From Deltaproteobacteria bacterium (GTDB lineage: Bacteria; CG03; SLGR01; JBDRKX01), in the NCBI GenBank assembly GCA_048634875.1, contig JAIVZN010000002.1, forward strand, positions 1-57,407: a DNA stretch of 57,407 bases. The letters are read 5' to 3'. The position numbers were made by a program, and so were the translations under genes. The notes beneath the pieces were generated by a model, which was not told the DNA's origin, did no database searches, and was given only the letters and a program-made list of their open reading frames with translations. Shown piece by piece: positions 1 to 1,771 of this stretch. Every line of letters starts with the position of its first letter. The first letter of the stretch is position 1.

Positions 1-323
1 GAAGAATGTTTCTTGATAACATCTTCCTTTGTTACATTATGCCAAATTTGAAAAATTTTTTTATTTTGTTCTACGCCTTGATGTAGAAATGTATCCATTT
101 CAAACGATGTCCAATTTTTATTTAAATATTCCGGTGAAATAATTAATATTCCCGATTTAGATTTATTTATGCCTTCTTCAATTGAATTTAATAATTTCTC
201 TCCCACTTTTAAACTTAACGGGGCATACCAGATATTGAAACCGTGGCTTTTAATAGCACCAGCAATTTCAGTTGCCAAAGCGTTATTTTCTTCAGCATAA
301 GATATAAATGTTTCATATTCCAT
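1..323 (-). CDS. TIR-domain protein; the 3' end runs off the left edge (first 107 codons visible)
   Basis: Hand translation of the reverse strand from the ATG at 323-321 gives MEYETFISYAEENNALATEIAGAIKSHGFNIWYAPLSLKVGEKLLNSIEEGINKSKSGILIISPEYLNKNWTSFEMDTFLHQGVEQNKKIFQIWHNVTKEDVIKKHS. It shows the FISYA start, a G..IW block, the IISPEYL..W..xE (candidate catalytic Glu) block and the KIFQIW block typical of bacterial TIR (TIR_2-like) domains. It is absent from the ORF track because no stop lies inside the window. Confidence 0.75.
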   Translation of the reverse strand, partial: MEYETFISYAEENNALATEIAGAIKSHGFNIWYAPLSLKVGEKLLNSIEEGINKSKSGILIISPEYLNKNWTSFEMDTFLHQGVEQNKKIFQIWHNVTKEDVIKKHS

Positions 324-379
324 TATTTATTTTTTTCTTATAACATTAATTATTAAGTAGATGATGTTATTTTGGAAAA

Positions 380-408
380 AATATACCATTATTTACGTGA
401 AATGTCAA
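380..408 (-). promoter_or_regulatory. Candidate sigma70-type promoter reading toward the TIR gene (Pc-like position)
   Basis: The minus strand reads TTGACA (403-408), a 17-nt spacer, then TATATT (380-385), about 57 nt upstream of the TIR ATG. Confidence 0.4.
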
Positions 409-447
409 TTAAAATGCGAAAAGAGATGCAAAATAATCCTTTTAGGC

Positions 448-476
448 TTGATTTTTCTGCTTTATGATGCTATTAT
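448..476 (+). promoter_or_regulatory. Candidate promoter for intI
   Basis: TTGATT (448-453), a 17-nt spacer, then TATTAT (471-476), about 45 nt upstream of the GTG start at 521. An ATGAT..ATCAT palindrome overlaps the -10. Confidence 0.3.
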
Positions 477-520
477 CATAATTAAATAGATTCTGCATAA
501 TAATAGGTTTGTATTAACAA

Positions 521-1771
521 GTGCGTATTTCCATAAAAAAATTTGAAGAATATCTAAAATCGGTGAGGATAGTTCCAGGAAACAGGATACCGTATTATGT
601 GAGCTGGGTATCCAGGTTTTTTGAATATCTTGGTAAGGAAAATGATGCTTCTGTTAATGCGAATGAGATAGATAAATTTACTCACGAACTGGGCAAAACA
701 TACGAAGAGTGGCAAGTAAATCAGGCAAGAGATGCCATTCGTCTTTATCTTTTCTTCCGCTTGAAGAAATCTAAGACGAATGCTCTCTGGAGTAAAGAGG
801 CTGATAAACAATGGGAAGAAACCAGCGATATGATGGTAAAAGCGCTGCGGTTGCGTCACCGCTCACTGAGTACGGAGAGAACATATCTGGGCTGGGTGAA
901 ACAGTTCCACGCATACCTGAAAGGACTTTCCCCGTATCATCTGGAGAAATCGAACTTTGAGAATTTTATAAGCTACTTGGCAGTTGAGCGGAAAGTCTCC
1001 GCATCAACGCAAAATCAGGCATTTAACGCGATTCTATTCTTCTACCGACACGTACTGGACAAGGAAGTTGGTGAAGTAAAGGGCGCGGTGCGTGCGAAAT
1101 ATAATCGCAGACTCCCGGTTGTGCTTACCAAAAAGGAAATCAATCAAATTTTTGAACAGCTTGATAAAAACGCCCTGTTAATGTGTAGACTCATCTACGG
1201 TTGCGGTCTACGTCTGAAAGAGTGCCTAACTCTCCGGGTGAAAGACATCGATTTTGGACTGAATTGTGTAATCGTCCGTTCGGGAAAAGGTGATAAGGAC
1301 CGCCAGACAGTGCTCCCTGAGAGTCTAAAGAATGAGCTTCAAGAACATTTGGAGAAAGTCCGTGCATTATATGAGAGCGATAGGTCTGATGGTCTTCCAG
1401 GTGTATGTCTGCCGAACGCACTCAATCGAAAATACCCAAACGCTGGCAAAGAGTGGGCATGGCAATGGGTATTCCCGGCACATTCAATCTCAATTGATCC
1501 AATAACTAAGGTCATACGTCGTCATCATGTTCATCCGAGTTCACTGCAGAAGAATTTCAAGCAAGCAGTAATGAGCGCAGAAATTACCAAACGCGCGACG
1601 ATTCACACTCTGCGCCATAGCTTTGCAACGCATCTTCTTGAAGAAGGATATGATATACGAACCATTCAGGAGTTGTTGGGTCATGCAAACCTCCAGACAA
1701 CAATGATATATACACACATAGCCCGGAAAAACAAAATTGGGGTCAAAAGCCCACTTGATAGTTTACAGTAA
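521..1771 (+). CDS. intI: Integron integrase (IntI-type tyrosine recombinase) with an N-terminal extension
   Basis: It aligns by eye to IntI1 across the IntI-specific insertion ([23 protein letters not shown]...IRRHHVH). Catalytic residues are present: GLRLKE (Arg), GKGDKDR (Lys), [13 protein letters not shown] (His-x-x-Arg), LLGH and MIYTHI (Tyr). The start is GTG. The gene is visibly more G+C-rich than its neighbours. Confidence 0.9.
   Translation: [416 protein letters not shown]

Follow-up and report, generated by a model that had tools for sequence, protein, structure and literature searches.

Classical integrons, exemplified by those of VchIntIA and of the class 1 integrase IntI1, place the integrase gene divergent from the cassettes, insert cassettes at a G|TT crossover and read into the first cassette from a promoter in the platform. 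Sedentary chromosomal integrons store anti-phage cassettes, and moving a cassette to the first position next to the cassette promoter Pc was found experimentally to switch on its anti-phage function, the first-position insertion having been engineered between G and T of a GTTA site (bioRxiv 10.1101/2024.07.02.601686). That study covered Vibrio and RefSeq genomes, and its main text mentions neither TIR nor Thoeris nor Gabija. Here, we describe positions 1–1771 of contig JAIVZN010000002.1 (assembly GCA_048634875.1), the whole of which (57,407 bp) was analyzed and is referred to as the window. Very probably, this region is the platform, with the cassette entry point, of a chromosomal integron of the classical, divergent organization that carries a gene for a TIR-domain protein as its first cassette.

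The locus shares with the classical systems its gene order and orientation, the G|TT crossover and a platform promoter directed into the first cassette. It differs from them in that Pc lies in the intergenic region rather than inside intI and in its host, a low-G+C uncultured bacterium with type IX secretion system (T9SS)-type genes; moreover, IntI1 and VchIntIA lack the ~95-aa N-terminal four-helix domain present in the integrase described here. A chromosomal location is shared with sedentary chromosomal integrons, whereas the element is absent from two sister contigs (L090 and L091) and its intI is an outlier in the G+C content of third codon positions (GC3). Like the Vibrio anti-phage cassettes, a small, streamlined candidate defense gene occupies the first position by Pc; unlike them, the integron is not fixed in its species group and the defense role of the TIR protein is a prediction. 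Architecture and mechanism are those of classical integrons and already known. New here are the TIR cassette, the turnover at attI documented by comparing strains of an uncultured lineage, and the clade of extended integrases to which this IntI belongs.

Integrase and cassette entry point

The features of the platform and of the visible part of the first cassette are as follows:

1..343, minus strand: first gene cassette, visible 5′ part, beginning TTATAAGAAAAAAATAAATA ATG (delimited by the homology boundary with loci L009 and L008)
1..323, minus strand: TIR-domain gene, first 107 codons, cut by the contig end (TIR_2, E = 6.8e-17; E75)
338..344, minus strand: attI core and recombination site GTTATAA, with the crossover between G344 and T343
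345..379, minus strand: attI proper (platform side), between the –10 element and the crossover
380..408, minus strand: Pc-like cassette promoter (–35 TTGACA, 408→403; 17-nt spacer; –10 TATATT, 385→380; upstream TG)
448..476, plus strand: candidate PintI promoter, TTGATT-17-TATTAT with an upstream TG (consensus scan), back to back with Pc
521..1771, plus strand: intI, integron integrase of 416 aa with a GTG start (TIGR02249, match to 2A3V, catalytic residues)

The product of intI scored 426.1 bits against the integron integrase model TIGR02249 (cut-off 265), covering model positions 5–315 of 315, and contained the Pfam domains Phage_integrase and Phage_int_SAM_4. Its score against the IntI1 equivalog NF011946 (347 bits) missed the cut-off of 435; the protein is therefore not a class 1 integrase. 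VchIntIA (PDB 2A3V) aligned to residues 109–414 without large gaps (E = 7.9e-74) and was also the best structural match of an AlphaFold model of the protein (predicted local distance difference test, pLDDT, 84; E = 1e-21; 39–40% identity by fold alignment). The IntI-specific segment, which ends in RRHHVH, aligned without gaps to VchIntIA residues ~200–241; its W and RRHH positions are shared with VchIntIA and invariant in 30 relatives. In VchIntIA, this additional segment contacts the extrahelical bases of attC. Equally invariant in the 30 relatives, and aligned to 2A3V, are the six catalytic residues of the R-K-H-R-H-Y set (R231, K256, H362, R365, H388 and Y397). As predicted from its sequence, IntI is a catalytically complete integron integrase, and the preliminary description of this region, which had recognized an IntI with its diagnostic insertion and a full catalytic set, is upheld by the TIGR02249 score and by these alignments. 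The start of intI may be uncertain by ~4 codons, the ATG start of the relatives being ATA here.

An ordinary Xer- or phage-type tyrosine recombinase that happens to lie beside a resident chromosomal TIR gene, with no integron involved, is extremely improbable. Xer models do match IntI in part and no attC is visible in the window, but the scores of all Xer models lie far below their cut-offs, that of TIGR02249 lies far above its own, and the IntI-specific insert is present. In addition, a sister strain has other DNA in place of the TIR gene from the GTT onward, and the gene possesses an attC in another context, as detailed below.

The integrase and TIR genes are divergent and separated by 197 bp. 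The Pc-like promoter in this gap, likewise noted in the preliminary description, matches the consensus at 11 of 12 positions. It is identical in the sister strain L092. The platforms of loci L001, L010 and L002 (IntI about 70% identical) retain the –35 hexamer at the corresponding position; their –10 regions are A+T-rich throughout and match the consensus less well than the one here. With its –10 element ending on the platform side, 36 nt before the crossover, Pc would transcribe any inserted cassette, and we predict it to be active. The PintI block, too, is conserved in the L001, L010 and L002 platforms, and the candidate promoter at 448–476 would drive intI; no LexA-type box was recognized by eye in the intI promoter region. 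The attI stretch at 345..379, which contains the inverted pair AAATAAC ... GTTATAA, is 100% identical in L092 and has an aligned counterpart in L001 and L010. Our assignment of integrase-binding boxes within attI is putative.

Comparison of strains located the crossover point. Contigs of sister strains were reached by cluster look-up of the neighboring PorV-like protein, and one of them, L092 (GCA_048634415.1), displayed the gene order of the window (PorV, Xre, RES, a 58-aa open reading frame (ORF) and intI). It aligned to window positions 342–10119 with 98.85% identity over 9789 nt, and the alignment ended at 342. The two strains were 100% identical over a stretch that starts at window position 539, in the 5′ end of intI, takes in both promoters and attI and runs up to ...TTAATAATTAATGTT; past the GTT at 344–342 (minus strand), they were unrelated. 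A second pair behaved in the same manner: L001 and L010 share one platform (IntI 72% identical to that of the window) and diverge from one another at the aligned position. Divergence at the GTT in both pairs is the behavior expected of an attI site. The GTT-type core, presumed from the outset to lie between intI and the TIR ORF, thereby maps to G|TT at 344/343. The first cassette differs between two otherwise nearly identical strains. Like the window, the L092 contig ends shortly after attI.

In this organism, IntI would insert folded, single-stranded circles bearing attC at G|TT 344/343. The current first cassette would encode a TIR protein of ~239 aa and be transcribed from Pc, and the TIR effector would be expressed because of its first position.

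The TIR gene as a mobile cassette

The window comprises the entire contig, whose left end falls 343 nt inside the first cassette; the TIR ATG lies 20 nt past the attI junction. A word-indexed search with the 107-aa TIR fragment returned a single match, and a scan of genome contigs for the TIR protein returned none. A metagenome scan with the same protein retrieved locus L009, in which an ORF at 2282–3001 is complete (239 aa) and 93% identical to the window fragment at the amino acid level. At the DNA level, the cassette is 90.7% identical to L009 (2262–2604) and to locus L094, and 79% identical to locus L008. Homology between the window, L009 and L008 has a sharp edge at TGTTATAAG, with no similarity upstream. 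This edge, GTTATAAG, is common to three contexts of the TIR gene and coincides with the GTT at which L092 diverges. The first-cassette position originally proposed for the TIR ORF is thus supported by an edge at the attI GTT, by replacement in L092 and by an attC after the gene in L009. The ORF is also not the start of a large multidomain gene, a possibility raised at the time, since the homologue is complete at 239 aa and the closest members measure 236–248 aa.

As an attC, we looked for an R″ box (RYYYAAC) and an R′ box (GTTRRRY), L″ and L′ boxes and ~5-nt spacers within an imperfect hairpin of 57–141 nt directly after an ORF. The L009 site (3012–3086; 75 nt) begins 11 nt after the TIR stop codon and reads TTATAAC-AATTC-AATCAAC...GTTATTT-CAAAC-GTTAGAT (R″/5 nt/L″...L′/5 nt/R′); its bottom strand folds as a single hairpin with a mismatch in the L box. 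It qualifies by layout, length and position, as judged independently of the IntegronFinder covariance model. R″ (TTATAAC) departs from strict RYYYAAC but is exactly complementary to the GTTATAA that the cassette itself carries, which fits the circular form of a cassette. In L008, a 63-nt attC-like hairpin (TCATAAC...GTTATAA) ends in the GTTATAA that precedes the TIR gene. On sequence grounds, the TIR gene forms a separate, mobile cassette that has an attC of its own in another context.

The TIR ORF of L008 (300–704) is itself cut after 61 codons by unrelated DNA, which could be an insertion or an assembly join.

Upstream regions of relatives of IntI were scanned with a home-made heuristic (AAC...GTT, R″/R′ complementarity, forced single hairpin). 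Some convincing sites emerged, e.g. in Brocadia (GCCTAAC...GTTAGGT; 93 nt; dG –43). The heuristic was about equally productive on the wrong strand in G+C-rich loci and was not used for array counts. In the complete genome of Brocadia pituitae, five small ORFs lie upstream of, and divergent from, intI, with at least one strong attC among them. In most relatives, intI is located 50–600 nt from a contig end, as in the window and L092. We infer that further cassettes lie to the left of the window. An "inverted integron", with intI in the same orientation as the cassettes, was excluded, as the heuristic scan of the whole window found no attC array downstream of intI.

Several points count against an integron with the TIR gene as its first cassette. 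Detection of attC relied on the heuristic rather than on the IntegronFinder model; across the whole window and on both strands, it yielded no credible site (only matches in coding regions or unrelated palindromes), and by software criteria the window taken alone would be classed as In0, i.e. an integrase without attC. Folding z-scores of the attC candidates were modest (–1.9 to –3.2 for L009 and about –0.7 to –0.9 for L008). Between gajB and the cassette GTT of L009 and L094, no convincing attC was found (a degenerate candidate, TCATAAT...GTTATAA, was picked out by eye only), and this context may differ from an ordinary array. For the window TIR gene, the 3′ two-thirds and the attC are extrapolated from the 90.7%-identical metagenome copy, and contig ends in metagenome assemblies can be chimeric. 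As for Pc, a match of at least 11/12 arose in 3.3% of dinucleotide shuffles of the A+T-rich intergenic region (p about 0.03 alone); the promoter match is hence suggestive by itself and strengthened by its conservation in related platforms.

We also considered that the platform might be a relic with an inactive IntI, and that homologous recombination, exchange of a larger segment or the assembly of a mixed population produced the cassette difference. In its favor, the adjacent toxin–antitoxin (TA) module shows apparent decay (the N-terminus of Xre is interrupted by a 32-nt duplication, and RES covers only a third of its profile), intI has ATA where the ancestral ATG stood and is left to start at GTG, and the contigs of both the window and L092 stop shortly after attI. 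However, intI retains its full length and every catalytic and IntI-specific residue, and two strains with 98.8% overall identity share it unchanged; they part precisely at the core G|TT, and the same cassette edge recurs in two unrelated contexts. We thus regard a relic as quite unlikely and favor a platform into which cassettes are inserted at attI.

Fold, family and candidate function of the TIR protein

The TIR fragment matched TIR_2 with E = 6.8e-17 and carries the catalytic glutamate of the W-x-x-x-E motif (E75), in agreement with the TIR domain that had been read from ORF 323→1. E75 is invariant in the family, whose members span 236–258 aa and are conserved over their whole length. The full-length homologue combines an N-terminal TIR domain with a conserved alpha/beta C-terminal domain of ~100 aa, which has no Pfam match and contains several invariant Pro, Gly and Glu residues. 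Searched with Foldseek, the predicted structure (pLDDT 82) superposed on AbTir, BtTir, TcpB/BtpA and PdTIR (PDB 7UXR, 7UWG, 4LQC and 3H16) with E-values of 1e-12 to 1e-9, TM-scores of 0.80–0.85 on these targets and 28–35% identity, and the W-x-x-x-E glutamate is shared with all of them. The four described proteins carry TIR at the C-terminus, after coiled-coil regions; in the window family, by contrast, TIR is N-terminal and followed by the conserved alpha/beta domain.

The family occurs in settings that differ widely from one another. In L094 (2–3213) and L009 (11–1924), gajA and gajB stand directly upstream of the TIR gene (PADLOC: gajA 454 bits, gajB 656 bits) and would form a complete-looking Gabija system. 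Two Pantoea plasmids encode TIR homologues of 41–44% identity as solitary genes with unrelated neighbors. With PADLOC profiles, the TIR proteins matched best to PDC-S66 (112–124 bits; window fragment, 112) and second to ThsB1 (68–69 bits; window fragment, 69), both matches being partial and covering the TIR part only. In both models, unlike the window family, TIR is C-terminal (profile positions 148–280 of 282 and 166–285 of 303).

Taking together the conserved glutamate, the BtTir/AbTir-like fold, the adjacency to Gabija and the solitary occurrence on Pantoea plasmids, we favor a putative stand-alone, NAD+-cleaving abortive-infection or defense effector, a function predicted from homology and context.

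Alternatively, the TIR protein might be the signal-producing half of a ThsB-type, multi-gene Thoeris system, generating a cyclic-ADP-ribose (cADPR)-type signal for a partner in the next cassette or elsewhere. The ThsB1 hidden Markov model matches of 68–69 bits fit this proposal, and among solved structures the fold comes nearest to AbTir and BtTir, TIR domains crystallized as NAD+-consuming enzymes. Both make cADPR isomers. Moreover, everything left of the window is unseen, and a partner gene could lie there. Yet PDC-S66 rather than ThsB is the best PADLOC match, the ThsB1 match is partial, and no ThsA-like (SIR2/SLOG or Macro) neighbor is present in L094, L009 or the two Pantoea plasmids, whose TIR genes have mutually unrelated neighbors; in addition, the conserved C-terminal domain of the family could itself act as sensor or effector. 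On balance, a Thoeris-type role appears improbable.

Still less likely is a cassette without any part in defense, encoding either an addiction-type toxin that stabilizes the array or a Tcp-like effector (TcpB/BtpA type) directed at eukaryotic hosts. TcpB/BtpA and PdTIR are among the solved structures closest to the TIR model, TA modules are common in integron arrays, and one such module flanks the intI of the window; weak promoters of TA cassettes within arrays have been mentioned (bioRxiv 10.1101/2024.07.02.601686). Against this, neither an antitoxin-like partner nor a secretion signal was evident for the TIR protein, its gene adjoins Gabija in L094, and models of defense candidates are its best PADLOC matches. 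The organism, moreover, is represented by an environmental metagenome-assembled genome. A stand-alone defense effector thus remains the favored role.

Integrase clade, probable acquisition and chromosomal setting

The canonical IntI body, with the IntI-specific insert, corresponds to residues ~100–416. At 416 aa, the protein exceeds the canonical size of ~320–340 aa with a single N-terminal core-binding domain by an extra four-helix domain at residues ~1–95 (positions 521–805), ahead of the point at which canonical IntI models begin. IntI1-type models first match at about residue 104, which confirms the ~95-aa extension seen initially, now as a feature shared by a large clade. AlphaFold placed its helices at residues 5–15, 20–37, 47–58 and 63–83 with good confidence, directly before the four-helix core-binding domain. 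Taken alone, the extension matched Phage_int_SAM_4 below threshold (21.7 bits; cut-off 27) and showed weak pairwise similarity to the core-binding domain that follows (E = 0.009); we interpret it as a probable diverged duplication of that domain. Among the best 120 database relatives of IntI, nearly all are about 410 aa long, at 95–99% query coverage, and IntI is matched from residue 8 or earlier at most of the top 80 genome loci, which belong to Thermodesulfobacteriota, Nitrospirota, Brocadiia, Spirochaetota, Chlorobiota and Calditrichota, among other groups. Judged by these relatives, the extension is a clade-wide trait of a very large group of integrases and no specialty of this gene, and no description of it was found in the searchable literature.

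A relative in L002 (1159–2277; 69% identical; 372 aa) has an internal deletion in the extra N-terminal domain. Upstream of its gene, a housekeeping formyltransferase gene takes the place of cassettes; L002 may hence be a decaying or empty platform.

The preliminary description had remarked that intI is richer in G+C than its flanks and had taken this as a hint of acquisition, and both statements gained support. The G+C content of intI is 43.5% vs. 35.6% for the window, and its GC3 is 0.432 vs. 0.277 ± 0.03 for 29 other genes (z = 5.1), equal to that of the intI genes of its nearest relatives, which are located in loci of 48–50% G+C. In the sister contigs L090 and L091, the integron is absent: the flanking genes are 91–97% identical, synteny is lost left of window position ~3100, and the PorV-like gene is followed by a DUF2281 gene, a 153-aa gene, purU and rnf in place of the integron and RES/Xre. 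On this comparison, the region left of ~3100 is a variable hotspot. Given the outlying GC3 of intI and its absence from L090 and L091, the integron was probably acquired horizontally from a donor of higher G+C content, rather than residing vertically for long, and is polymorphic (present or absent) in the species group.

In L090 (10946–12115) and at the contig end of L091, a hairpin with a 10-bp stem (TTATAACAGCCG...CGGCTGTTATTT) lies after the PorV-like gene and before the DUF2281 gene. The 153-aa gene has a weak, sub-threshold match to NapC/NirT-type cytochromes.

On its other side, intI is flanked by the following segment:

1772..3100, minus strand: flank inherited with intI, comprising a 58-aa ORF (1806–1982), a RES ORF (2073–2411), and an Xre/ParS-type antitoxin (2417–2695) with its promoter region (Pfam, NCBIfam)

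These genes adjoin intI in L092, and partly in L093, and are absent from L090 and L091. No attC-like site was found in 1772..3100 by the heuristic scan. The 58-aa ORF between RES and intI matched no family. The RES toxin ORF (112 aa; the same length in L092) matches positions 2–48 of the 157-position RES profile and may be truncated. In the Xre/ParS-type antitoxin gene, a 32-nt tandem duplication (2717–2780) immediately behind the original start codon (ATG) shifts the frame; in the window and in L092, Xre accordingly measures 92 aa, without about 25 N-terminal residues of the helix-turn-helix (HTH) domain. In L093, with one copy of the repeat, it is intact (117 aa) with a full HTH_3 match.

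The genes pnp, infB, ftsK and ftsH reside on the same contig as intI, which places the integron on the chromosome. Rfam and tRNA scans of the whole window returned no match. An intergenic element of ~115 nt occurs in two copies of opposite orientation (26740–26860 and 49670–49790) and contains a 58-nt hairpin with perfectly complementary ends (CTAAAAC/GTTTTAG) and no Rfam match; it could be a miniature inverted-repeat transposable element, a terminator or a small RNA. Within 3153–9009 (minus strand), the gene for the PorV-like outer-membrane protein adjoins that for a 1613-aa protein with carboxypeptidase-regulatory-like repeats, for whose sister-strain homologues (1611–1622 aa) Pfam families are recorded. 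The gene for the 1613-aa protein is the most divergent among the sister strains (91–93% DNA identity vs. 95–99% for its neighbors). Together, the PorV-like and the 1613-aa protein hint at a host of a putative FCB-type lineage.

Two further-reaching ideas are put forward tentatively, as possibilities that we hold to be somewhat doubtful. The TIR proteins of ~240 aa with their C-terminal domain, found in an integron cassette, on plasmids and in defense islands, might represent a new single-gene abortive-infection system; or IntI with its extra domain might define a distinct class that is widespread in anaerobic and uncultured phyla and uses a second DNA-binding module for accessory sites of attI or for regulation.

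The current picture of integrons is unchanged by these findings. The locus would illustrate a published mechanism in nature, a candidate defense gene occupying the first slot of a chromosomal integron, from which cassettes are expected to be expressed. That strains ~98.8% identical differ in their first cassette while sharing the G|TT insertion point suggests that integron shuffling operates well outside Proteobacteria, the group in which it has been studied. Two candidates emerge from the comparison: a compact TIR protein of 239 aa that appears to move among integrons, plasmids and Gabija islands, and an extensive clade of little-described IntI proteins whose N-terminal domain is putatively duplicated.

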